DNA of 64,000 bases from Octopus vulgaris (Eukaryota). Location: positions 157,852,001-157,916,000 of the forward strand of contig OX597816.1 in NCBI GenBank assembly GCA_951406725.2, given 5' to 3'. This document shows, piece after piece, positions 761 to 60,600 of this stretch. The number at the start of each line of letters is the position of its first letter. Position 1 is the first letter of the stretch. The notes beneath the pieces were generated by a model, which had not been told where the DNA came from, ran no database searches, and saw nothing but the letters and a program-made list of their open reading frames with translations. Both the position numbers and the translations under genes were made by a program.

Positions 761-791
761 CAAACAAACAAAAAAATGTTAAATAACTTAC

Positions 792-894
792 GTCATCACG
801 GATGCTTCTTTAAGAAAAGTCTGCGCTGCTCTGTTTCTGTCTTTTAGTTGTTTCACAGCAACAAGCTGTTGGTTGTAGCAGCCTTTATATACAT
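792..894 (-). CDS. CSK: Csk exon: kinase subdomains I-III with the catalytic Lys (VAVK) and alphaC Glu (103 nt, phase 1 to 2)
   Basis: ttactaacag|AT GTA TAT AAA ... GTG ATG AC|gtaagt encodes (D)VYKGCYNQQLVAVKQLKDRNRAAQTFLKEASVM(T). It is in phase with the previous exon and matches Csk VAVK...AQAFLAEASVMT. Confidence 0.95.
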
Positions 895-2477
895 CTGTTA
901 GTAAAATTAACAAAAGTGAAATATGAATAAATTACTGCTTCATTATTTACATTTGACAGATATTTGTCCTCATCAAGAAAAGGACAAATATCCATCAAAT
1001 GTAAATAATGTACATAATTCTTCATCTCTTAAATATAGAACTGAAACTGTTGCTTGATAAGAAGAACCTCTATGATAATGACCCAAAAGAGTGTTGTAAC
1101 ATTTTAATTAAAGTTTCTATATCCTAATGGTTCTTTTAGCTTTACAATTCTACAAATTCACATCTAAAAAGATACATTACAAATTGGATTTAAAGCATCC
1201 TCATCATTCTCATCACCATTTAATGTCTGTTTCCCATGCTGGTATGGGTTGGATAGTTTGACAGGAGCTGGTAAGGTGAGGAGCAGCACCAAGCCCCACT
1301 GTCTGTTCTGGCATGGTTTTGATGCTTAGATGCCCTTCCTAACACCAATTATTTTAGAGTGTACTGAATGCTTTTCATGTGGCATCAGCACCAGTGCTTT
1401 TTGCATGGTACCAGATGTTGATTCAGTTAACTATACCTTTCCTTAAGAAAAATATTCACTACTATTTTTATTTAACAAAAATCTACAAAACACAGGTATG
1501 CAGCTTTAGGGTTTTTTTTTTTTGTATTTCAAACACAGACATCATCATCATCATCATCAGTGGTGTCCTTTTATGCCTGTTTTCCATGCTGGCATATGTT
1601 GAACAGATTGTTATAGCTGGAACCAGCACATATTATTTTTAAGCTCTTTCCTGAGACTCTTAACGCTGATATCCTAGGTTTCTGTGATGGATATGTTCTC
1701 CACAAGATGTAATGTAAAATGAAGTGCTTTGCTCAAGAACACAATGCATTGCCTAGCCCAGGAATCGAAACCACAATCTTATGACCATGAGTCCAACGCC
1801 CTAATCACTAAGCCTTGCATTTCCACTATCTGGGGATTACCTAGCCAGAGGTTCACATCTCATTTGTTATTCATTTTTCATCTGGTTCCTATGGCTGGAT
1901 GCCCTCCCCGACACCAACCAGTTTACAGAGCACACACATTTTTTTAATGGTAACAGCATCAGAAGGGTATCATGTTCTCAATAATATTAAAGGATCTTCA
2001 AAACCTTATAATTTACAGAATATAAGATTGAGAGACCACATTATAGAATGTCTCACTTTTAAAATTAAAGCACAAAGTGAAAAAAACAGAAAAAGATATC
2101 TATTCTGTATAAAGCATTTAAAATAGAGAAAATTTCATTTCCCAACTGTATTGTAACAAAAAAATAGACACAGATTAGGAAGTTCAGTTTGCAACCACAT
2201 GGCTGTAGGTTCAATCCCACTGTGCGGCACCTTAGGCAAGAGTCTTTTACTATAGCCTGGGTCTGACAAATGCCTTGTGAGTGAATTTGGTAAATGGAAA
2301 CTGTGTAGAAGTCTGTTGCAGATATCCATGTGTTTGTGTCTTTGCCTGTGTGTGTCCCCTCACCACTCAACAACAGATGTTGGTTTGTTTACACACCCAT
2401 AACTTAGTGGTTTGGCCAAAGACACCAATAAAATAAGTACCAGACTTGAAACAGGTCCTGGAGAATAATCTGTTTAA

Positions 2478-2894: not shown

Positions 2895-3063
2895 CACCAA
2901 ATTCTCCTTTACCAATAGGTTCTTTAATTTCAAGGAATTCAGCATTAATTACCCAGCCGCCTCTTTCAAAATCCTTAAAATTAACTGTTGTAAAATTATT
3001 ACCGGTTTTCCAAAGTGGTTTAGAAAGTCTTGTACACAAGCCATCAGCATCTTTCTCATAGTG
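2895..3063 (-). CDS. CSK: Csk exon: end of SH2, SH2-kinase linker and Gly-rich loop (169 nt, phase 0 to 1)
   Basis: gttgcag|CAC TAT GAG ... TTT GGT G|gtaagt encodes HYEKDADGLCTRLSKPLWKTGNNFTTVNFKDFERGGWVINAEFLEIKEPIGKGEFG. HY..DADGLCTRL and IGKGEFG are typical Csk signatures. Confidence 0.96.
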
Positions 3064-22389: not shown

Positions 22390-24050
22390 ATTGTATGCTG
22401 TCAGACAAAAATGCCCAGATACCAAATCTGAACTGCAAATTGTATGGGGAACAAAGCTGAACCAGAAAAATTTAGTGAGCACCAACTTTCCAAGATTCTC
22501 CACAGTGGATTTGTATTCACAGAGTCAAAGGCTTTTGTTAAATTAATGAAAACCTGGTAAAGGCAGAGTCTCTGCTGTATGCACTTCTCTTGCAACTGTT
22601 TGATGACAAAGACCATATCTGTGGTACCTCTATGTGATCTAAATCCACACTGATGCTCTTGGATAATGATAGAGCATATATATATATATATCTACAGCTG
22701 TTTCTATTAGAAATCTTGTGAATATCTTTCTGGCAGTTACAAGAAAACACCATGAAAGTTATCACAGTTTGACTTGGCACATCTTCCCTTATGCAAAGAA
22801 ATCTGTATAGTATTTCTCTAATGCAATGGAACTGGTGAGCCATTTCCTGCATTGACAATTAGTGTTGTCATAAAATCAGCCACTACACCCTTACCATGCT
22901 TAATAATAGCCTTAGTTTGTATTTATCCATGGTAGATGGATTGTGAAAAGAAAATCAGTGAAATGCTCCAGTCATCTTCTAAGAATACTATCAGTAAATC
23001 CATCTTTGGAACAACAGCTGATTGGCATGGACCATACATCTGTTTTAACAAGCTGTACATTATTTTGGAGTCTTTTTTTATTAAGGGCCAGTCAAATATT
23101 TTTGGATATACACAACCACCACACATTTTCGTCATTGCTGTCAGTTCTCTCTTCAAAGTTGATTTATAGTGCTTCAAAAAATCTTCTGCCTTCGAACGTT
23201 CCTTTATATGTAAATTAGGATTGAGCAATTTTTGGTATAATTTATGCTTCATGTTTACAAGATTGGATGTTTCAGAAGTATTTTCATTGAACCAATTTTA
23301 GAAGCTGTGGCATAAAACTTTTGTTTGAAGTCTGACCATGAATCATTAGATTATGAATTTACTAGAGCTCTACAAAATAACTCAGATATTGCAGGATGCT
23401 GAAGATACCAGCTTTCAACCATCTTAGAACCTTTGTGTTATTCTTATCTTTTACTTGTTCAAGTCATTGCCATGTGGCCATGTTGGGGCACTGCCTCGCA
23501 AAGGGTAGCCAAACAAATCAACCCCAGTACTTATTTTTTAAGTCTGGTACTTATTCTATCAGCCTCTTTTGCTGAAATGCTAAGTTATGGGGACATAAAC
23601 AAACCAAGTGGTGTAATGTCAAACACAAACACGTATATAAGTGACAGGCTTCCACACAGTTTCTGACTACAAAATTCACTTACAAGTCACTGGTTGACTC
23701 AGGGCTGTAGTAGAAAACACTTGCCCAAGGCACTGAACATTGGGACTGAACCTGAAAACACATGGTTGCAAAGTGAGCTTCTTAACCACAGAGCCATGGC
23801 TGCACCAGTTGTAAATTGTTTTCCAACAACCAGCTTCAACTTTGTTCATACAAGGTAGTCATCTGTCCAACACAGTCCCAAACAATACTTTAACATTACA
23901 AATATCAAGAACATCCAGCTTACATATTATCACAAAGTCTGCAAGATAACCTTGCTATGAATTAGCATTGGTGCAGGAAACCTAACAACTTGTGTTCCAG
24001 GTGGAACTGTATATTGCATGTTACAAGACCCAGTTCAGAATATAGCCACA
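22390..24050 (-). mobile_element. Degraded RTE-clade LINE (endonuclease to RT remnants), interrupted by a SINE at ~23445-23805
   Basis: ORF 22401-22616 gives MVFVIKQLQEKCIQQRLCLYQVFINLTKAFDSVNTNPLWRILE, the RTE RT motif (..RQLQEKC.EQ...LY..FIDLTKAFDSV...LW.IL). Frameshifted. Confidence 0.85.
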
Positions 24051-26731: not shown

Positions 26732-26951
26732 CTCAACTAAATGTGGTAGACTGTCAAAGAAGACTTCCTTATCTATAGTTAATTTGTTGTTGCAGTAGAC
26801 TATATGGTAATGCTCAACTTTCCTCTGGTGACACACACACAATGTGTAGTCTCCGGGGTAATTCTGGCTTTCTCGCAGTAAAAACAACCCATCTTCCATC
26901 ATTTTAAGAAGATCTTCAGCTTCTTGACGTGTGATCTTTCCATGAAACCAT
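26732..26951 (-). CDS. CSK: Csk SH2 exon B, the canonical-like copy (220 nt, phase 2 to 0); candidate mutually exclusive exon
   Basis: tttgtag|A TGG TTT CAT GGA ... GTT GAG|gtacat encodes [73 protein letters not shown]. Colinear with human [18 protein letters not shown]...QLVE. Confidence 0.94.
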
Positions 26952-27299
26952 CTACAAAAACCGGGCAGATTACACATCACATAGGGTTTAACAGAGCCAG
27001 AATGAAAAATTGTGGAAATTCTCAAGCAAGAAAAGATAACCCAGGATTTCATTCTTCTCCTTGAAAGTAAGGGTTTTTATTAGTAAATTAGGCAATAGTG
27101 CAAACTGAAAAATGAACAGCTGTTTTCAAAAACAGTTAATAAATCCAATTGTCCATTGGTATTTATTAAACACAGTAACACAAACCATAAAAAAAAAAAC
27201 AAATTAATTTAAAAATAAAATTTTAAAAAATTTGTATAAATGTCAGAACTTTAAAACAAAAATATTAGTTACTGATATGCCTGATTTAATTGTTATTCA

Positions 27300-27451
27300 C
27301 TAGCTGTGTGTGTGTGTGTGTGTGTGCGTGTGTGTGTGTGTGAGCTGACAAATCAATATGAATGCATATATCTCCAGGAGAAAAATGTACACACATTAAC
27401 ATATACACACACACATGTATTATATACGTATGCATATACATTACACACAGG

Positions 27452-27487
<36 letters not shown>

Positions 27488-28352
27488 AGTATATATACAT
27501 ATATACACACACATAAATATATATATCCACACATTCATGAGGATACATGAACACACATGCACATATATACATAGATATAAATATAAATATATATATATAT
27601 CTGTATATATATATATACATATGCACACACACAAATATATACATGTATTTGTACATATATATTAAATACGTACTATGTATAAAAATATGCATACATATAC
27701 TATTATATATGCCATACATGTATATGCATCATACATTTGCATATAGACATATACTCAGACACAAACACACGCACGTTCCACATCATCAGATTTATATCTT
27801 GGTGAGCAGATCTTCCATACCATGGGATTTGTATTCTGGCTGTTGTTTGTGCGTTAATTATAGCAGGCTACAATTAACTAGCAAACTACACGTCACAAAC
27901 AAGATGAGCAGGTCAGTGATGTTGTCTAGCTCACGTGACCAAAATACATATCTGATGATCTGGTTCTCTAATGGCCATGATATAAATCTGATAATGCGAA
28001 ACACTTTATTGGTCATTTTGTGAATGTAAAATCTACATAAAGTTATATATATATATATATATCTCAAAAGGATGTGTTATAATACTATTCCACATATGTA
28101 TATAAATATCAATATTGTGTGTGTGTGGAGATATATGTATATGTCAATGCAGTTATATATGTATGTATGTATGTATATATATAAATGCATTTATGAGGGT
28201 GCGTGTATTATATACATATATATACACACACAAATTTACATATACATACATATATATGGCTCTGTATACATGTTTGTGCGTGTGTGTGTGTGTGTAAATG
28301 TATAGAAATATACACATAAATACATATTTTATATATATATATATACACATAC

Positions 28353-28394
<42 letters not shown>

Positions 28395-28460
28395 CATATA
28401 TATGTCTATAAATATAGATTCATACATAAGGTGTGCACACACACACACACACACGCATTA
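27300..28460. repeat. Long compound (TA/CA/TG)n microsatellite field upstream of SH2 exon B; similar fields at 20.9-21.5 kb and 52.9-54.0 kb
   Basis: Seen directly; accounts for the Y/I/H/T/C/V-rich ORFs. Confidence 0.95.
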
Positions 28461-29039
28461 ACATGATTGATTCCCATCATGCACTTGAATTCCTTTGGAG
28501 TTTCCTTAACTCTCAATGGTCTCTACATTGAGAATCTACAGGATTTTCTAAAAGCTAAAAACCCTAATACCCAGACATTGGTTTGTGAATACCCTCTTTA
28601 GCTACTGCACAAGGAAGTTAAGCAAGTTTCCATGAAATATAGACACTGTGAGTGACATGTAGAGTTTAGATTGGGCTATCCCTTGAAAGCATGATGTTGG
28701 GAACAGATCATTTCATGTCTTTCTTCTAAAATTCCATTCTACTGATTCAAACAATAACTATTGAAATCGTAGCAGTCCTATGCCATTACATAAATGAAGC
28801 ACATTCTTCATTTTACATATGTCATCTTCACAAGAGACCATAACTACATATGCCATTCATAATCAAATCATTGTTGTTGTTGTTGTTTGGCAGCATGTCA
28901 GCTCTGATCAAGTATTACTGTGATCAAAAGCATTCCAACCATGACCAATCTCCTTTACCATGTTTAGTTTATTCTGGACAACAGTATCTAACGCCCTCTA
29001 TTGAGAAGGTAGGGAGTGATTTTAATAATAATGATAATA

Positions 29040-29521
29040 ATAATAATCCTTTCTGCTATAGGTACAAGGCCAGAAATTATTGAGGAAACAGAATTTTTGA
29101 GGAAACGGAAGTCAATATTATCAACCCTGAAAGGATGAAAGGCAAATTTGACCTCAGTGGCATTTGAACTCAAAATGTAAAGATCCGGAAGGAATGCCAA
29201 TGAACATTTCGTCTGAAGCGCTGATTATTCTGCCAGCTTGTTGCCTTATAAATAAATAAAATAAATTAATTAAATAATAATAATAATCCTTTCTACTGGA
29301 AGTACAAAAGGCCCCAAATTTTGAGGAAGGGATTAAGTTGATTACATTGACCCCAGTGCGTAACTGGTACTTATTTAATTGACCCTGAAAGGATGAAAGG
29401 CAAAGTTGAGCCCGGTGGAATTTGAACTTAGAACGTAGCGATGGGCGAAATACTACTAAGCATTTTGTCCAGCGTGCTAACAATTCTGCTAGCTCACCGC
29501 TTTCAATAATAATAATAATAA

Positions 29522-29577
<56 letters not shown>

Positions 29578-30327
29578 TAATAATAATTATAATCCTTCCT
29601 ACTGTTGGTACAAGGACTGAAATTTTTGGGGAGGGGATAATAACTATTATAATAATAATAGTCATCATTTAATGTCTGTTGTCCATGCAATTACAGCAAT
29701 GGCATCAAATTTTTGCATTAGTCTAGCAATTTTAGGAGGAGGGGAAAGTTGATGACATCAACCAGAGTGTCCAAATGGGAGTCATTTTATCAACCCCGAT
29801 AGGATGAAAATCGATCTCGGCAGTATTTGAACTCAGAACACAGAGTGAGAAGAAAGGTTGCTAAACATTTTGTCCAGTATGTTAATGAGTCTGCCAGATT
29901 GCTGCCTCAATAATAATAATAATAATAATAATAATTATTATTATTACAGCTGCAGAAAACAGTGTTATCAGGGACGGCTAGGATACTTAAGAAGGTTCTT
30001 GGCATCCAAGGCTACTTGTTGTAACCCGATGTTAGGATTCTTTTCTTTTCCAACAGTCTAATCTGTTGAGTGTATATGAATAATAATAATAATAATAATA
30101 ATAATGATAGTTTTGTCTAATAACAAATGCAGGATATTTCCGTTCATATTTTGAATTGCTGTATTCCTGTGTTCTTTTCATTTTTCACTTTGAAACCAAG
30201 GAATACAGACATACTGTCGAAGTACTGTTCAATTCAATATACGGAGTCCAATATCTATTACAAATTGTATCATGCTCTTCTTATTGATTATTTATCTTTG
30301 TGAATGGTTACATCAATCTTCATAAAT

Positions 30328-30369
<42 letters not shown>

Positions 30370-30607
30370 TCATAATAAAAATGATAATAATCCTTCCTAC
30401 TATAGGCACAAGGCCCGAAATTTTTGGGGGAGGGGTTAAGTCGATTATATCAACTCCAATACGCCACTGGTATTTAATTTATTGACACTAAAAGGACAAA
30501 AGGCAAAGTCGACCTTGGCAGAATTTGAACTCAGAATGTAAAGACAGACAAAATGCCGCTAAGCATTTTGCCTGGTGTGGTAATGATTCTGCCAACTCAC
30601 TGCCTTG
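29040..30607 (-). mobile_element. Cluster of same-orientation SINE copies (gcctttcatcc core family) separated by (AAT)n
   Basis: Repeated gaaaggatgaaaggcaaag..gac....g..gaatttgaactcagaa at ~29130, 29390, 29800 and 30500, each bounded by aat repeats. Confidence 0.8.
29947..30105 (+). mobile_element. 3' terminal fragment of an R4/Dong-like non-LTR retrotransposon in an (AAT)n tract
   Basis: Encodes QLQKTVLSGTARILKKVLGI, resembling the R4/Dong C-terminal LQK..L.GTARILR.VL motif. A short UTR and an (AAT)n tail follow; AAT/ATT repeats flank both sides. Confidence 0.7.
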
Positions 30608-30999
30608 ATATATGATAATAATAAAGAGAAACCTACATCTATTTTTGAGATATGAACCCATGAAGTTTTAACACAATTATGTATTGTAAAATTTGCAGTT
30701 TAGTATTTTAAATAAAATAAAATAAAAACCACGAGAAAGTAAAGATTTATAAATAGATTTACTATTTACCGGCTATAATTTCAATCCCCTCATAATATTC
30801 TTATTTATGAAGTTTGGAAATTTACAATTTTTAACCTAAAATCTACTCTACACAAAACAATGCCTTGCATATTTATTGCTGATACATTCCAAGAGATTCA
30901 AATGGGAATAACATGCTAATTGCTGTTGTGTTTTGTCACAAGAGAACAACTTCTCTTTTACAAAGAATGTGTTTGTAACTTATCACATAAGGTACTGCC

Positions 31000-31330
31000 A
31001 ATCTTTAATCATATCAGGTATTGCCTACCTGTTAACATATGGTGCTGCCTGCCTATTATATAGGCTGCTGTCTAACTATTATCAACTATATCTAACTTAT
31101 ATTTTGTGCAACCTACTGGTTATAATATAGGGTGATGCCTATCATGTGGTAAGCTAACTGCTATCATATAAAGTGCTTCCTAGGTGCTACGCTATACTAA
31201 ACTGCCTAACTGTTATCACAGAGAATACTGACTATCATTACCATGTAGGATGTTGCTTATGCATCATGTAGGATAGCACTTAACTGTTGACATACAGGAT
31301 GCTGCGTAACACAATAGCAGCCTGTGTGCA
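31000..31330. repeat. Degenerate minisatellite with a ~20-25-bp unit (..tatag/gg.tg.tgcctaactgtta..)
   Basis: Recurrent ggtgctgcct / ggtgatgcct / aggatgttgctt / aggatgctgcgt, each followed by aact.ttatc-like text. Confidence 0.5.
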
Positions 31331-34157
31331 TATTACAAGAATCTAACTACATCCATGCAAATCTGAAAAATGGCAAGGGCGAAAATTAAGTAGGCATTTC
31401 AATTCAGCGATAAGTAAACATCTGCATGCCTGAAAAATAAATGAATCCCAAGAATATTAGATAAGTTAGGGTTTGAGGCAAAGGGTTGTTGCTTGTGGTG
31501 GCAGCGACAGCAGTGGTGGTAGTGGTGGTGGTGGCGGTAAAAATAAACAGTTAGAATCCAGGCTGCATCTGTGAGAGTCCAAAGCAGAAAAAAAAAAAGA
31601 AAAAAAAAAGAAAAATGAAAAACAAAACAAGAAAAAATTAAATGCAAAAAAAAAAATAATAATAATTGCGTACAAATGGTCATCTCTGTTGCTGTTATTA
31701 TTATAATAATCATTATTATTATTACTACTTATATTAATGTATCTAATAAGAGAAGTCATTCAGAAAAGTGATTGCTGTTATTTACTAAACTAATTATTTA
31801 TCTAGCAAATGTGATGATGATCAAAAGAACTCTATAGTTCTAATACTAATATTCACTAATTAGTAAAAACTAAATGAAAACCTTCAGTCACCATTCATGA
31901 CACTCTCTTTCTGATAGTAATCTAGTCACTGTACAAAACGATTTAACTGTAGATGCATATTGTTAGGAAACGGGCCCCTATCACAACTATATGAACAGGA
32001 GTGGCATCGGTGCCACTTAAATCAACACTAAAGAACAGAACAGAAAGGAAATCTTTCAAAGAGAATCTATTCCTAAGTATTCTTGAATAAGTTGGTTATC
32101 GAGTTAAACTCTCAGAAATTCCAAATGCTCAAAATCTAAGCACATTGAATGTGTGTTGCATGTACATGTATTTTCTCAAAGACAAGATCATATTTACATA
32201 TGCTTATTCGTGTGTGTGTATGTCTGTGTGTATATATATATGCATGTATGTATGTGCAAAAATCTGCCAATTTTTTTTTTTTTTTAATATACACTACACT
32301 TTGAAAGACAGCTGTCATAAACAAGACTGGATATAAAGATAAAACACAAGAGACAAACTAATGAACAAAATAAAATACAACAATAACAACAACAAAAAAA
32401 TAAAACAACAATTTGACTGACATTCCAGAGAGATGACAAGATAAACCAATTAATGACTGACGGATCCAGACTGACAATAACGGACAACCAATATATAGAG
32501 ATAAGGTAAAAAAGAAAGGAAACCAATGGATTTGGTTGTAATTTCTTCAATGAAAATATACAGTTTAATTTTTCAAAAATTAAATCATTTCACAAAGCCA
32601 GAAAAAGTATAAATCCAGCTATGAGTCAATTGCTCCAAAAATGAGTTCACATCAAATTAATAATTATTTAGATTTTTTTCTTTTTTTTTTTCCTTTTGCT
32701 TTTTTTTTTTTTTGGAGTAAATCCAATTATTCAAGTTGATTACAAACATTACGGTATTTCATTTTTATTTTTCTTTCAATGGCAATGAGGAGTATGGGAT
32801 AGAGAAAGGAGGGAGGCAAGATAACAATCTAGGGAACAAAGAAGGCTGGTTGTTCTGTTCTGAGGAATTATTAAAAGAATCTCTATGAACCTGTAAGATA
32901 TAGAACATCTATATATATACGTATGTATGTATATATGCACATCTATAAAATGGAGTCAACAAAAAAAAAAAAATTGTATGGAATACAATAGAACAGTGTG
33001 TGTGTGCACTTGTATGTGTGGCTGTGTATATGTATGTGTGTGTGTGCATGCGCATGTAACTACATATACCTACAGACTATAAAGTAAATACTTTACTATA
33101 TAATGCAATAACAGTGTTAACAGATACAGTATAAACTAAACATGACCTATCAGAACTTTAAAAAAAAAACCTGAAACAGCAAAAATAACTTATAAAACTA
33201 AATAGCATTGAGTTTTAAGAATTGCAGAAGTTGGTTCTTTTATTGCAAAGTAACAACTGGGATGCTTAATCTATGTTATTTATGGAATAGATGATACAGA
33301 AGTGTAAGAAGACCAAACCAAGAGAAGAGCAGTGGCTCTGTTAGATGAGAAAACATTTCCAAACTACTTGAAATTGCTTTAGAGCTAAAAATGAAGGATT
33401 ATTCTAATGAGCAGGAAATTCAGGAAGCTCTTCAACTATATAATTAAATTCTAAATCACACTTAAACAGAAGTACATAATAAGGGTTCATGCCTTCAGTA
33501 TAAAGCATCAATAATGAAAAAAAAAATAATGACATAAATAAATAAATAGGAATCGGACAAATGAAGAAGCTTGCTTAAGATATTCAATGCAAGAAAAAAA
33601 AAAATGAATTTTCGTTTAATAAGCTCGAGAATTAATTTCTAATTATTTAACACTCGATTATCCCAGAAATTTAATCACTGACAAAATTAGTTTCTAATTA
33701 AACTGCAAAGCTTCTAATTCAATAAACCCAATGCCGACAGAGTTATAACTGATGTATTTGAGAAAGTGATGAGTAAATATATGAGATTGGATGCTTAGAG
33801 AGAAAAAATAAAAACATTTTTTTTAAAAAAAACAGAACCCGCTGTAGTTTATACATTGTTGTGAATATTTGGATATGTATGTGTGGTTGGATGTTTTATG
33901 AGCTATCTCATGATTTAGTGACACATCTAGTCATAAAATATAAGTAGAGCAAAGATGCAAGTTATGCAATTATCTTCAGTTTGTTGTTTAATCACAAACT
34001 AGTAATAGCTGCAAAATATTTTCACTATCTGGCAGACATGCACAAATGTTTAATAAATCAAAAAAACAAAGAAAACTGTGTTGAGAACAGAGGCGGCTCT
34101 GATGGAAAGAATGGAGGTGCCTCCAATGAATGGAAGTATCTCCAAAGAAAAGTATAC

Positions 34158-34383
34158 CTCAACTAACTCCAGTAGAGTATCGAACTGAAGATCACCACCA
34201 TCGACTTCAACCTTATTGTTAGTCTGTAGCACACGATAGTGCTCCACTACATCCCCAGGGATGACTAGCGACAAGGTGTAATCCCCAGGGTAATGGCCAT
34301 TCTCTCGTACAAGGAACGACCCTATCATGTGTCCAGCCAGAAGAGATTCTGCTTCTTCTCGGCTAACTTTTCCATGATACCAT
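34158..34383 (-). CDS. CSK: Csk SH2 exon A, the divergent copy (226 nt, phase 2 to 0); candidate mutually exclusive exon
   Basis: ttgcag|A TGG TAT CAT GGA ... GTT GAG|gtatac encodes WYHGKVSREEAESLLAGHMIGSFLVRENGHYPGDYTLSLVIPGDVVEHYRVLQTNNKVEVDGGDLQFDTLLELVE. No stops; the SH2 motifs WxHG, FLVRE, YPGDYTL and VEHY are intact; splice sites are canonical. Confidence 0.88.
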
Positions 34384-37300
34384 CTGCAACAAATACCACA
34401 GGCTGCTAAAGGAAACAGTTGCATAAAAGAACATAGAAAACATCCACAAAAGAAAAAAAAAGAAAAGAAAAGATACACAGTTAAATTAAATCATATATTA
34501 ATATCAAAAGCTTTTAATTAGTTAAAAAGAACCACTCCAAAATCATAACTGTATAAAAGACCTTCAGTGTCCTGGAAAATTTCCAGGCAATTGACATACA
34601 TTTATACATAAACACATTTGTTTTTGTTGGTTTAGCATCAGATTTTTTTTTTACCAATCTGCAATATAGGTTCTTTGTGTTCTTGTTGGTGGATCAACTT
34701 AGCTGGGTTTTCTTTAGCATCTCTCTCTCTCTCTCACCTTTTCAATGACTGTAATGCCACTCAACTCCACTAATTAAACCACTCATTCACGTTGTATGTC
34801 CATAATAATGCAGCCATTTTTCTTTCAGGCATTAACCAAAGATTTCTCAAGTTCACCTTCACTAAACCTGTCCTTCAACTTGATCATAGAACATACTTTC
34901 ATGGCTATACACCCACCATATATCAGGTTCATGCTTCACAAAATGAGTGTTTCATATAGAACCAATTTAACTTCAACAGACATAACAGTTCAATAAATTT
35001 TTACTCACTTTGTACCTAAAACAAAACCACTTGATGTTCATTAAACTGTTCAAGTAAAAAACATTTATCTATAGCCTTCTGCAAGCTCTGCTCCAAGTAG
35101 TCCCTTACAGCATACACTTAGGACAACAGGGAGCCTCTACATGGTCACACGACCTGCTAGAAATAGCAGCTATATATATCAAAACAAACCCAACTGTCTT
35201 AGAAAAGAACACAATGTGGTCCTGGGTTTCTTTGCATGAAGGAAGCTGGGATAGTTGTGGCAGAAATCCCTTTGATCACAGGTCTGTTCAATGAAAGCTG
35301 ACCTGGAGATTAATAAACAACCGCAGTAATTGCAATAACTGATGAGATCTACTAATTGCACCTAATTACTCAGCTGACAACTTTAGAACTACTTATATGT
35401 CATAGATCTGGTCATACTGGACTGACTAGGAAGAGGGGGGAAATTTACAATTAGAATTTCACAGAACCTTTGTGGTTATGAGTGGGTTTTTTTTTTACAT
35501 TAATTATTGTCAAAACAAGACAGAGACAATCAACCAACAATTTGGTTGAATAATTTCAATCAATTTTGATTGGCTAATTAGCAGAGTCATCAGAGCATTA
35601 GATAGAATGCTTTGTGATATTAATTTTTTCTGATTCTCTGTGCTTTGAGTTCAAGTTCTCCAAGGTCAGTTTTGCTTTTCATTCATTCAGGAATAATAAA
35701 AAGAAAGTAGTACCCATCCAAGGGTACTGTAAAGACGTCTGGTTCTTGTGTTCTGAGTTGAAATGCTGTCATGGCTTACTTTGGATATTTCTTACAAGGG
35801 AGAAATGACCCTACAGAGCCCAACCCCTAACATGTTGATCCACCTGCTTCTTGAGTTTGATGGAAGACTATTAGAGGTACATTTAAGCCCTATTGAAAAT
35901 ATTTTACATTGGAAATTCTGCACATTTCTTCCACAACACATAAAATACAAACATACACAAACATCAAATAAATAGTATCATACAATTGACAACATTATTC
36001 AGAAATATTAGAAATTAAAAATAAGTGATTTATTACAGTTTACCTTTATTACTGGAATGGAACTCCAAAAGAAAATAAATAAATAAAATAAAAGGTAAAG
36101 AGAATTTTAAAAAACAACATTTCAATTCTTAAATGTTGAAAATGTGATGAGTAAGGAAGACACTTCACAGAAAAAAAAAAGCCAAAATAAACAAAGAAAC
36201 AAAACAAAAAACAAACAAACACATGAGCCAGAGCATTTGTGTTGCTATGATCTCAGTTTCTACTATGGCTATTGCATGGTAGATGCAGGTAATCCTTTGC
36301 TTAAACACCACCACCTGACCCATAACTACCTTTAGCAATGTATGAGGTCATTTTGTAAGAAATTTCAACCAGATGTCTACTCTGAGGATAACTTCCTTCC
36401 TCTCACTTATCCCAGAGATCCTAAGCAATAATATATACACTCAACCCCGTTTAAAAGCCTCTAAAGGATTTATACAACCTAGTGATTAGTAGTTTTGTGG
36501 TGCATGGAAAGGAGATAAATCTGTGATGGCCAGTATTTTCATAAGCTAACATTACCAGTTGCTCTGGTACTTCTTATACCCATGGCTGGTTCATATACGA
36601 TATTGTTCTGATCTGAAGCATCAGCAACAAAACGCCAGCAATAGATTTGAACTCCCAATTCATGAAAAAGTAGTCCACTATTTTATTAATTCAACCAACT
36701 TTACCTATTTTAAAATAATATAAAGAGAGCCCCTTGGGAGATCATTCAAGCAGTTAGAAACAGTAGACTAATCTCTAACCAATCACACAGTGTACTAGAA
36801 AAGAAAAGCAGGTCACAACTGGAACTTTTGGCTGAGCTGATCTGGTACTAACATTAACAAAACAGCTGTCAATCTCACCTCAGTATTCATAGGTTGTTAC
36901 TAAATAATATAATAGTATCCAGTAGTTAAACAACTGACTGTTCTTCCTGCTTCAATAAATCTTCTTAAAAGTTGAATAATATAATTTACTTGAAGCAAAG
37001 TGGAATACAACTAAATCTAATTAAGAAAACCACAACGATACACTGTTGGAAGTAAATGAATAACAACAGAAGTTTACACAGTTTTGCCAGTTTTGCCTAG
37101 TGCAAAATATTTCAATTTACAGTGGAAGGTAAATGTAACTTAAAAGCAATTTGCTTTTCTTTTGTGTTTTTTTTTTAACTAGTACCTTAACTGTACAGCA
37201 TTAATAGGGTTGTAGAATGCAGGAGCTTATCTTCATTTCGTCAGGCACTTCCTTTCTATGGAAAGCTGTAAGTCTAATGCAGATCTATCCCTTGCTAAGA

Positions 37301-37949: not shown

Positions 37950-38050
37950 GGCATAGTCTGTAAGGAGACTTCTTGTCTCTTTTGAACATAATTTGCTGGG
38001 ATCATTCCTTCTCTGCCATATGAATTTTTAGCTTGGTACCAATTAGGGTC
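37950..38050 (-). CDS. CSK: Csk exon: C-terminal half of the SH3 domain plus SH3-SH2 connector (101 nt, phase 0 to 2)
   Basis: Minus strand reads ttttgtttattttag|GAC CCT AAT TGG ... ACT ATG CC|gtgagt, translating [33 protein letters not shown](P). This matches Csk [26 protein letters not shown]...LMP. Not in the ORF track. Confidence 0.96.
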
Positions 38051-55609: not shown

Positions 55610-57582
55610 GAAAGAAAGGGACTGCAGTGGATGCCATGTGACCAGCAAAACAAAGTAACTAATCATTAATAGCATTGCTACATTATACATCACGGACAAA
55701 GTGCAATCTTTTTATACACACACACACACACATTCATTCCCTTCAAACAAGAGTTTAGAATAAGAATACTTTTAATTAGCCAGTTTACATTTTAAACAAT
55801 GCTTACAGAATTGTTAATATTTAAACACACACACAAAAGAAAAAAGAAAATGGGAATAAATATTTCAGTAAATATATATCTCAGTGTTAGATATGTCTTA
55901 AATCTGCAGGCAAAGTTATAATTAATTTTTCAAAAGACTTTCAAATTTGCTTCGGCTGAACCAGCAGAAATGAGTTATAAATTATATTATTGCTTGTTGT
56001 TTAGTAGTAGATTTAGGTCAATGATTTACTAAAATGTCACTAAAACAACTATGTGGAGTGGAGAATACTGTCTTATGTTGGCTCTTTCTGCAGAGTTTAG
56101 CAGTACTGTTGCTGAGTGGAATGTTAAAAACACAAATGATTGTATGTGTAACAGGAGTGGGAAGGCAGTAATTTATGCATAATTAGTGAAGGACTTCTTA
56201 GTTGGTTTTGACTAATGATGTTGATGGTCTCTTGAGGCCAATACATTAGAAGTCCATCTCTAGTAGGCTTGGTAAACTTACATTGTGACGATTATTTTGA
56301 GAAACTCATCAAACTAGATTCTGGTTAGACAAGAGGCTGATTTATTTATGAAAAGCAGATGTAATTTATATTCGAGGTAACCATAAAGTTTTTGCTTATC
56401 AACCATGTGGTTTTGGGTTCAGTCGCATTGCATGGCGCTTGGTCAGGTGTCTTCTACTATAGCTCCAGGTCAACCAAAGTCTTGTGAAAAGAGTTGGTAG
56501 ATGGAAACTAAAAGAAGCTTGTTGTATAAGTATTTTGTGTGTGTGTGTGTGTGTGTGTTGTATGCGGTATGTATGTACGTGTATCTTTGTTCTGATATAC
56601 ATCATCCTCGTCGTTTAACGTCCGCTTTCCATGCTGGCATGGGTTTGATGGTTTGACTGAGGACTGGCAAGCCAGAAGGTTGTACCCGACTCCAATCTGA
56701 TCTGGCAAGGTTTCTACACCTGGATGCCCTTCCTAACACCAACCACTCTGAGAATAGATAAAAGTGAGTTTTATTGTCATACAGGTGGTTTCTTCTATGA
56801 AAATATATCTGGCCACGAATATGCATGGAAACAGGTGAAGGTTGGTAAAAGGCAGGGCATCTGGCCATAGAAAATTGGCCTCAATGAATCTCATCTGACC
56901 CATGCCAACATGGAAAAGTGGACGTTAAAATGATGAAGATAGCTCAGCTAATACATGTTACCAAATTAATGCCTTTCATTTCATTTATTCATTTACCTGC
57001 TTCAGTCATCTGACTGCGGCCATGCTAGAGCACCACCTTTAATTGAACAAATCGACCTCAGGACTTATTCTTTGTAAGCCTAGTACTTATTCTATCAGTC
57101 TCTTTTGCTGAACTGCTAAGTTACAGGGACGTAAACACACCAACATCGGTTGTCAAGCAATTGTGGGGGGGACAAGACACACACACAAATATATACATAC
57201 ATATCATCATCATTGTTTAACGTCAGTTTTTCATGCTGGGCATGGGTTGGACGGTTTGACTGAGGTCTGGAAAGCCAGTGGCTGCACCAGGCTCTTTATC
57301 TGATCTGGCAATGTTTCTACAGCTGGATGCCCTTCCTAATGCCAACCACTCTGAAAGTGTTGTGGGTGCTTTTTACATGCCACCAGCACAGGAGCCAGTC
57401 AGGCAGGCCTGGCATTGATCACATTCAGATAATGCTTTTTACATTCCACCAGCACGTGAGCCAGTCGGGGGCACTGGTATTGGCCAGAATCAAGTAAAAC
57501 TCCTGAAGGAAGTGCCCAATCACAACCAGAGTTAAAATAATTCAAACTAATAAAAGAATATATAAAGTAAAAAGAAACTCAC

Positions 57583-57672
57583 TTTAGCAGTACCATCTTC
57601 ATGAACTAGAACATTTTGTGAAGTAAGATCCTGATAAACTAAATTCTTGGCTTCCAAATATGCTATTCCTGC
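57583..57672 (-). pseudogene. Degenerate copy of a Csk kinase catalytic-loop exon, with its splice donor, lying upstream of the SH3 exon
   Basis: Minus strand encodes AGIAYLEAKNLVYQDLTSQNVLVHEDGTAK|gtgagt versus human Csk [37 protein letters not shown] has decayed to YQDLTSQN. The 5' part is replaced by a SINE. Confidence 0.85.
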
Positions 57673-60600
57673 ATGGGCTTCTTTCAGTTTCCATTTACCA
57701 AATCCACTCATAAGGCTTTGGTTAGCCTGAGGCTATAATAGAAGGCACTTGCCCAAGGTGCCACGCAGTGGAACTGAACCCAGAACCATGTGGTTGGGAA
57801 GCAAGCTTCTTACCACACAGCCACGCTGCGCCTGGTGATATTTGAATTCTGGATATCATTTCTGCCAACTCCTAAATTTCTACAGTCAAGTTTTGTGTTT
57901 ATAAAATCTCAGACAACAAACTCAATACAGTCTGCAAACAATTTGTTTAGATTTTTGCGTAGTTGAGTTTTGCTAAGTGTCAAAAATACGTTCTAGATCT
58001 TGCAACAATGTTACTCACAATAGACTAGATATCTTAATTTTCCATGTAAACATGTTACTTAGCCCCTGGTCAGATCTGGTTAAGGAAACCTGTGATCAAC
58101 AATCACACCAATTGTCTTTTTTTGTTATTCAAATCCAGTGCTTTTAAGATCACATTATCTGATGGTGCTTTTCTTTTTTTCTTTTTAAGATGGATGTTAA
58201 ACGATGATAAAGATGGTAGAATGTGATTTAACCCTTTTGGACTCAACCCACCAGAACCTGCCCCTTCTTCTATGATACAAAATAACTGCTTTAAAGTGAT
58301 CTAAAAGCCATCCATCAAAATTCAGTGTTAATTTATAGTTGAAACACTAGCTTAATAACAACTAAGTTATTTTAATAAATTCATTATTTCCAAAATTAAT
58401 TGAAAGCAAAGCAATGTATTTCAACAAAAATATGGCAGCAAATGGATTAAAAAAGATTTTGTTATTTCTAACATGCTGAATGACAATGACAGAGAGACTG
58501 TCTCTCACGCTGGTTTGCAGTAAACATGTAGAAAGTCTCGGCTTGCCCATTAAGCCAGTGAATTTATTGGTATTTCAGCACCACTAATTTGTTTTGCTGC
58601 AGTTTATGACTGAGTCCCATCAAAGGACAAGGTAGCTTTTGATTTTATTGAACACACTGCATTACTATAAATCACTGCACTTCCTAAATACACATTTAGC
58701 TTTGTCTTGAAGTGAAAACAGAATTTATCTATTATCACTACAGGCTAGGAAGTCCTTCAACTTTTTCAAAACTTTAACCACTATTGTTATTATAAGTTCA
58801 ATGTCAACATTTAGATAGCAAATTGTCAGAGATACTCGATTATCAGATAGTAAGTGATAAAGACCAGTTGAAGTAGTAATACATAATTTGTGCATTAAAC
58901 TTTTTGGCTTGACACGCACAGACCATGCTTTTTTAGCAAACAAAACCCAGGATGTTGTTAATTTATTAACTAATTATCAGATATTCAGTACAAGATATTG
59001 AGTACACACACACACAAGCTTTCATTCTTTTACTAGTTTCAGTCTTTGGACTGTTGCCCTGCCAGAACACTGCCTCCAAAAGTTTAGTTTGTGCTAACAG
59101 GCATTGTATTTAATGTTTCTGCCAGCTCGCTTTCTATAGCTGGATGCCCTTCTTAACACCAACCACTGTATTTCAAAGAGCCAGCCTTGTCACATTCTGT
59201 GTCACACTGAATCTCCCTCAGGACAACATTAAGGAAACATGCATCTGTGGAGTGCTCAGCCACTTGTACATTAATTTCATGATCAGGCTTCTCTTTTGAA
59301 AGGATCAACTGGAACCTTAATCAACATAGCCAACAGAGTGCCAGTTAATACCAACTACAGTGTGTACTAGGTGTTTTTTTATATGGCACCAGCACCAGTG
59401 CTTTTTAACGTGACGCCAGCACTATTAAACAAATCCTATGTGCAACAAGAAATTGCAGAACCATCTTTCTCTGACTATGAGGGCCTACCATCATTTAATT
59501 GAATAGTTCAGTCTCCATGGTTACTTCATTTATTTCAGAGATAATTCATCTGCCTCTTGGCATCTTAAGAGCAAGCAAAGGTTCAAAATTATGATGATGA
59601 TTTACAATGAGAAAATAATCCCAAGATTCCTACAATTGTCATAGTTTATTTCCACATGTACCCGACTTAATTATTTGTCACCAATACATGTAGTATTAGT
59701 CTAGCCAATGGACATTGGTTAACCATTGGAAAGTCAACCTCAAATTAGTTCCTTAATCCTTAGCATTTAAACCACCAGCCATATGAAGCCCATATATTCT
59801 ACCTTTTATAAGCTCAAACCAGCTGGATCCAGCCTCTCACACTTACCCTACAATGTCATTATAAAAAAAATGGATTTCATCAAAATCTTGAAGCTATGAG
59901 ATAATTCATGATTGATTCAAAACAAAATGAATAAGTAAGCATTACATTTGACAGAGTAATCTGAATAAATGGTGGTGGTGGTGGGTTTAGAATTTTAGCA
60001 GTTATGTATTAACAAGTGTGACTGTGTAGTTAAGGAACTTGTTTACCAATCAAATGGCTTTAGGTTCAGTCCTACTGCATGATGCCTTGGGCAGGTGTCC
60101 TCTATAGCATTGGGCCAACCAAAGCCTTGTAAGTGGATTTGATAGACAGAACTGAAAGAGACCTATTGAGAGAGATAGAGAGAGGTGTGTGTGTGTGTGT
60201 GAGCGTCTCCTTGTCTTCACATTGTGTGATAGTTGTAAACAAGCATCACTGCCCTATAAGTGGCATCTTTTATTTCCAATCTTCCATGGAAATATGAGGA
60301 GATATTACCTTAGTTGGAAACAGGTGACGGTTGGCAACTGAAAGAGGATCCGGCCATTGAAAATTTGTTTTGATAAATTCTATCGAACACATGAAAGCAT
60401 GGAAAAGTGGATGCTAAACCAATGTTGTTGATGATGATGATGAAAACAATGTTATTTTCTGCATAATTTTCACAACAGTCTGCATCTATTCACTTTCGAC
60501 TGTTCAATATATAATTCAGTGCACAACTGGCTGCAATAATAATGCAGCAACCAGTCAGTGAAAAAGATGAGCAAGCTGTCTAAAATAACCAGGGCCGACT

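Follow-up and report, generated by a model that had tools for sequence, protein, structure and literature searches.

The closest described systems are the tandem duplicated exon substitutions (PMC8373072, PMC9741552), in which adjacent homologous exons are used one per mRNA, are old and conserved, and leave the rest of the protein identical. A very probable case of such a substitution is located in the Csk gene of Octopus vulgaris, in a stretch of 64,000 nucleotides (contig OX597816.1, positions 157,852,001 to 157,916,000), the whole of which is referred to below as the window. Here the octopus gene has two alternative exons, A and B, for the SH2 domain of Csk, the kinase that acts as a brake on Src and lacks a lipid anchor. 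They differ from the catalogued tandem duplicated exons in that each makes up nearly one whole interaction domain, spanning positions 1-75 of the 77 of the Pfam SH2 profile (E 1.6e-19 for A and 3e-25 for B). The main-text passages and supplementary tables available from two human catalogues contained no match to CSK or MATK (PMC8373072, PMC9741552).

The first-pass annotation of the window had compared the pair with exons 7A and 7B of Fyn (FynB/FynT), which are also swapped in an SH3-SH2-kinase protein and give tissue-specific forms. The Fyn exons encode 55 residues that span the SH2-kinase linker and the beginning of the kinase, are dated to chordates (PMC8373072) and begin approximately where the Csk exons end, leaving the SH2 core untouched (PMC9741552, PMC8373072); thus, the likeness holds for the exon swap, while the comparison has to be corrected as to the part of the protein affected. 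In FES, the SH2 exon is skipped rather than swapped (PMC9132324). Vertebrate Csk and Chk/MATK share the same kinase role and have SH2 domains of differing specificity, Glu127 being the residue reported to separate the two (PMC10016382), but they are two genes and not two exons, and this determinant is unchanged in octopus A. In the literature searched, which included few subscription journals and no bioRxiv supplements, alternative SH2 exons of Csk are not described; the first-pass annotation knew of none either. The Csk SH2 exon switch is judged to be real and conserved and appears to be undescribed, though its isoforms stand in automated annotations as numbered predictions. Already known are the A and B isoforms in public octopod annotations, and new is the extension of the arrangement beyond octopus. 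The SH2 domain serves both to recruit and to activate Csk (PMC10016382), and a switch that replaces this domain while the SH3 and kinase domains stay constant would represent a domain-swap experiment tested by evolution, in which the SH2 surfaces that govern the choice of scaffold and those that govern kinase activation could be told apart directly. In molluscs it also points to a lineage-specific layer of Src control.

The full Csk gene is encoded on the minus strand and was mapped from L017 to L007. The window contains the following exons:

37950..38050, minus strand: second Csk SH3 exon and SH3-SH2 linker, phase-2 donor ATG CC/gtgag, common to both isoforms, 100% identical to annotated Octopus Csk
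34158..34383, minus strand: alternative SH2 exon A, 226 nucleotides (nt), 75 amino acids (aa), diverged, of the Gly-Gly EF-loop type
26732..26951, minus strand: alternative SH2 exon B, 220 nt, 73 aa, canonical Csk SH2
2895..3063, minus strand: constitutive exon with the SH2 end, the SH2-kinase linker and the kinase start, phase-0 acceptor ag/CAC at 3063
791..895, minus strand: next kinase exon, bounds approximate (tblastn)

The remaining kinase exons are located beyond the window start (L006-L007), and the first SH3 exon and the first exons beyond its end (L017, L020, L024). Annotated O. vulgaris Csk proteins match the window exons at 100%. Exons A and B have identical ends (ag/A TGG at the start and GTT GAG/gta at the end) and are separated by an intron of 7,206 nt, with the phase-0 exon at 3063 lying 23.7 kb downstream of B. 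The exon coordinates and splice sites of the first-pass annotation were all reproduced on rechecking the sequence; of its identity count between A and B (36/75), the near half identity stands, while the exact figure becomes 37/75. The best solved match of exon B is the Csk SH2 domain (E 3e-27), and among the best 120 of 233 matches B is 63-82% identical to Csk of other animals. Exon A is diverged and scores about equally to the SH2 domains of Csk and SHP2, yet it is an SH2 domain by its profile, by its fold in a predicted model and by the FLVR arginine. The Pfam order of SH3, SH2 and tyrosine kinase domains, with Csk as the closest solved relative, places the protein in the Csk family. Exon A has a single full match genome-wide, and a sensitive search (E<=2) of the three introns around A and B detected neither a third SH2 exon nor a linker exon that would restore the frame.

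Each SH2 exon copy has a length of 1 mod 3, follows a phase-2 donor and precedes a phase-0 acceptor. The frame is therefore kept with a single copy and lost with none, two or three. Reconstruction of the frame agreed with what had been proposed: A alone or B alone gives an open SH3-SH2-kinase frame, inclusion of both reads B as [15 protein letters not shown] and leads to an early stop, and skipping of both leads to a stop within the next exon. Mutual exclusion of A and B follows from this frame arithmetic. The pair therefore has two features of tandem duplicated mutually exclusive exons, namely adjacent homologous exons with equal splice phases, of which single inclusion alone gives a full-length protein, and the observation of two alternative SH2 exons in octopus Csk is confirmed. 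Transcripts with both exons or with neither would be substrates of nonsense-mediated decay. Each mRNA would thus take one SH2 copy, and wrong combinations, whose premature stops are seen in the frame, would be lost to decay. It might be thought that both exons are used together, either in a tandem-SH2 protein or in an unproductive A+B product that sets the Csk level, and the early stop of A+B could serve such decay-coupled control. This is highly improbable, the least probable of the alternatives considered, since no linker exon lies between A and B, the three-exon array described below likewise loses the frame with two or all three exons, and a role in decay alone would leave the A peptide free to change.

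Both isoforms are annotated in O. vulgaris, O. sinensis and O. bimaculoides, and the A isoform in Argonauta hians. In the cluster of P0002 (12 members), nine proteins contain A and three contain B, Csk being otherwise near-identical. The first-pass annotation had allowed for an exon A that is missing or disrupted in relatives; instead, peptide A is intact in the four octopod species, with 0/75 differences in 3/3 comparisons, the kinase part differing at 1, 7 and 5 of 296 positions. Peptide B likewise has 0/73 differences among octopods. A more distant A orthologue (P0345) is 85% identical to A, about the same distance as that of a cephalopod-like B form (P0035) from octopus B (13/73 differences). 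Judging from the octopod identity and from the substitution rates of the A-like exons given below, both exons are under purifying selection, in line with the earlier claim for A. The CpG argument offered for that claim is partly sustained: exon A does contain 7 CpGs where the window rate predicts about 1.9, yet this carries little weight, there being none in the constitutive SH3 exon, 2 in the next exon and 3 in B. As a separate observation, the intron flanks of A (34384-34425 and 34085-34157) are nearly the same in the octopus-type open reading frames (ORFs) P0001 and P0148, with 13/14 codons matching upstream and 23/24 downstream, a flank identity that may hint at conserved splicing elements.

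The transcript records are less favourable to the use of exon A. A Logan contig of 1,658 nt (P0032) has a 448-aa ORF in which exon B is spliced to its two flanking exons, while the Logan records of A (P0001, P0148, P0198) run through into introns, and in the records examined no spliced read or transcript contig joins A to its flanks. A search among short proteins for A fragments bearing a junction gave seven matches, none linking A to its flanks; a sequencing-run search for exon A listed no RNA run that contains it and was not used as evidence. The A isoforms therefore rest on gene annotations. RefSeq isoform models are usually backed by RNA-seq. The lack of a direct A junction would fit a leftover pseudo-exon or annotation artefact without functional splicing, and a copy of a kinase exon at 57565-57672 proves that decaying copies do arise in this gene. 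However, that copy is 88% identical to its source over 475 nt including the intron and has lost the HRD motif, whereas exon A, for which it serves as an internal control, has no such decay, being 75/75 in four octopod species and 85% identical in a further animal; a pseudo-exon is thus very improbable.

Similar exons were found outside octopus. A motif scan over the 345 proteins collected, used along with the best 150 of 1,123 matches of a HMMER search, revealed at least 11 single-exon ORFs that are 50-61% identical to A, contain a VDGG[DE] loop and end at the donor of A; P0213, in which the VDGG motif sits in a repeat protein, was dropped as unrelated. A profile scan of metagenome contigs gave nine loci, and three of them (L026, L027, L028) contain A-like exons. 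Three others (L029-L031) have a partial SH2 with another intron position, and the remaining three (L032-L034) gave 39-residue matches taken as chance. Two weak prokaryotic matches from a further scan were dropped, and ESM Atlas contained generic SH2 clusters only.

The L028 contig (8,444 nt) encodes three tandem Csk SH2 exons of 223, 220 and 220 nt, the A-like one first, each bounded by ag and gt and having the same splice phases as in octopus, with no other Csk exon between them or elsewhere on the contig; only single inclusion fits the frame. In L027, a second SH2 exon begins 1.2 kb past an A-like exon. L026 has approximately the same sequence, its exon differing by one synonymous base. The A-like exons of L027 and L028 differ with 0.13 non-synonymous (dN) and 1.59 synonymous (dS) substitutions per site (dN/dS about 0.08). 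On these contigs, SH2 exon arrays in Csk are not restricted to octopus, a point missed by the first-pass annotation, and they suggest an old splice switch that could retarget the Src brake. The non-octopus arrays probably belong to molluscs, and the animal of L028 is weakly indicated to be bivalve-like, because its exon 2 groups with the bivalve Solemya (93/86 in the 35-row tree introduced below). A limit of this comparison is that there are just two independent non-cephalopod loci, both short and without flanking constitutive exons on their contigs.

Further SH2 exon types, beyond A and B, were seen at 6105-6323 of L028, from 2056 of L027 and in proteins P0223, P0230 and P0257; some animals may carry three or more SH2 exon variants. 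The Csk-like SH2 of L029-L031 is interrupted by an intron after about 55 codons and has a differing exon structure. Odd-length Csk proteins of krill (P0030), spider (P0071) and tick (P0014) were considered as SH2 arrays and rejected, being gene-model fusions or repeats.

The age of exon A was approached with trees of 60 and 35 rows, the latter being the former minus 25 rows (near-duplicates, a long-branch paralogue and further outgroups). The A-like rows, including octopus A, form one side of a branch in both (94/88 with 60 rows and 99/98 with 35), and octopus B falls among the ordinary Csk sequences of gastropods, brachiopods and annelids. A single old origin of the A-like exons is likely on these data: an ancestral exon for nearly the whole SH2 domain would have been duplicated inside its intron, probably before the split of cephalopods from the L028 animal. 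Against this, when the EF-loop columns are dropped, octopus A leaves the A-like group, its nearest rows being L028 exon 3 and P0223 (98/92); an approximately unbiased (AU) test does not reject a cephalopod-only clade of A and B (p = 0.063, 35-row tree); and the A-like rows were chosen by similarity to A, which favours their grouping. The orthology of octopus A with the A-like exons hinges on the EF-loop columns, and it is less sure which exon is its orthologue.

Alternatively, one and the same exon might have been duplicated separately for the octopus pair and for the L027/L028 arrays, the EF loops having become alike by convergence or gene conversion. The change of grouping, the AU result, the long cephalopod A branch (1.05-1.86), the resemblance of the first half of cephalopod A to L028 exon 3 and the precedent of repeated origin in ACOX1 (PMC8373072) are consistent with this. 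It is nevertheless unlikely, since the exons share the VDGG[DE] motif together with its one-residue insertion and come first in their arrays, and octopus A joined octopus B in 0/3 trees.

The consequences for the protein were considered in 35 aligned rows (10 A-like and 25 other) in vertebrate numbering, with the usual SH2 loop names. Arg89, Arg107, His128, Tyr129 and Asp141 are invariant, both arginines in 35/35 rows. Since the first four belong to the phosphotyrosine pocket, SH2-A should still bind phosphotyrosine. Cephalopod A has Asn in place of Ser109. All ten A-like rows have a Gly-Gly EF loop with one extra residue, and Tyr133 is present in 0/10 A-like rows versus 19/25 of the others. 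A and B differ at positions 133, 148 and 150. A structural model predicted for the A isoform, with 3/32 A-type rows in the underlying alignment and a predicted local distance difference test score (pLDDT) of 81, shows the SH2 elements and is matched best by Csk (1k9a, E 4.8e-51); its root mean square deviation from 1k9a is about 13 A, and the domain arrangement was therefore left uninterpreted.

In Csk, Tyr133 and Glu147 act in ligand-stimulated activation, and Asn148 and Met150 in basal activation (PMC10016382). The best reading of the differences between A and B would thus be a changed ligand preference combined with a changed coupling to the kinase. B would retain the ancestral Csk SH2, while A would keep the phosphotyrosine pocket with a longer Gly-Gly EF loop and without Tyr133. 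A point that speaks against a changed preference is that octopus A, like B, keeps Glu127, a position occupied by Asp in 8/8 non-cephalopod A-like rows. It is possible, though doubtful, that the exons are truly exclusive and the swap mainly tunes kinase activity or stability via the SH2-kinase interface, leaving the choice of scaffold largely unchanged. The kinase domain of Csk needs SH2 contacts for its activity, with residues 133, 147, 148, 150 and 154 involved in coupling (PMC10016382), and the pair differs at three of these positions with Glu127 the same in both. Tuning alone, however, does not account for the most conserved A-specific change, which is the EF-loop motif with its extra residue in 10/10 A-like rows. 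The EF loop borders the ligand groove. A change of both properties is therefore preferred, and A is rather probably a regulated, tissue-biased isoform with other scaffold preferences C-terminal to the phosphotyrosine and a different coupling to kinase activation. The interpretation given in the first-pass annotation is otherwise supported; its last step, that the swap retargets Csk to other scaffolds or tissues, is an inference.

In L027 and L028, the choice of exon may involve RNA pairing. The first 16 intron bases past the A-like exon of L027, donor included, pair with 1916-1931 (one G-U), and in L028 bases 1270-1283 pair 14/14 with 2312-2325, so that a duplex of 14-16 bp covers or adjoins the A-like donor in both. 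In neither locus were any of 30 shuffles as strong, and helices as long were found at 0/58 and 1/115 other intron anchors. Both arms are kept although the introns otherwise barely align. Inclusion of the A-like exon in these loci is thus probably repressed by long-range RNA pairing over or next to its donor. The arms could instead be a near-palindromic DNA motif, presumably E-box-like, that is present in two orientations, but the pairing runs 4-6 bases beyond the 10-base core of this motif, and differently in L027 and L028, which favours RNA. The arrangement is similar to RNA-guided exon choice in Dscam1 and ATE1, where conserved complementary intronic elements are located near the alternative exons, and differs in having a single duplex, located at the first exon's donor, no supported docking/selector set (matching selectors were not found in L028) and no counterpart in octopus.

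Counting against the overall explanation, the octopus A donor has no long-range duplex above background (10/15 shuffles as strong). An octopus docking pair (32540-32558 / 23279-23297), AT-rich, of -15.1 kcal/mol and ranked 4th and 8th in two scans, was rejected. A local structure predicted across the octopus A donor (z -2.35, 4/200 shuffles, best of five windows) was considered unsupported, and it is not distinctive because the donors of three other exons are also predicted to be paired. A further sequence element was recorded near this exon:

34037..34042, minus strand: TGCATG, 116 nt past the exon A donor, a lead only

TGCATG, which we take to be an Rbfox-type element, was one of five motifs tried and occurs within 400 nt past the A-like exon in 3/3 loci scanned, but also past octopus B; a neural or muscle bias of exon A is therefore only a lead. 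Taken broadly, there is about an even chance that molluscan Csk carries an ancient cassette of two or three whole-SH2 exons, the first of Gly-Gly type and gated by RNA pairing at its donor, from which splicing picks the recruiting scaffolds. If true, splicing would give molluscs, as a natural domain-swap series, what vertebrates obtain from the Csk/Chk gene pair.

A second, strongly diverged Csk-like gene is located in tandem on the minus strand, about 33 kb past the Csk stop (C3, approximately 157763000-157804252; L002, L010-L014). It has one SH2 exon with the same boundaries, 49% identical to B, and kinase exons in the same arrangement, with HCD replacing HRD; tblastn in L007-L015 detected no SH3 exon. 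An SH2 match 48 kb beyond the window start was rejected as a third Csk exon, being past the Csk stop and within this gene. The decaying kinase-exon copy mentioned above belongs to a duplicate of a downstream Csk kinase exon with its intron flank, at 57200-57673 of the window on the minus strand, between the two SH3 exons. The Csk introns are packed with short interspersed repeats in many copies that are 70-88% alike (window 56600-57820, L006). Two alternative first coding exons of Csk were detected on the minus strand, near 5188 of L020 and near 2534 of L024, and one annotated O. sinensis Csk form also lacks the first SH3 exon (P0031, P0149).

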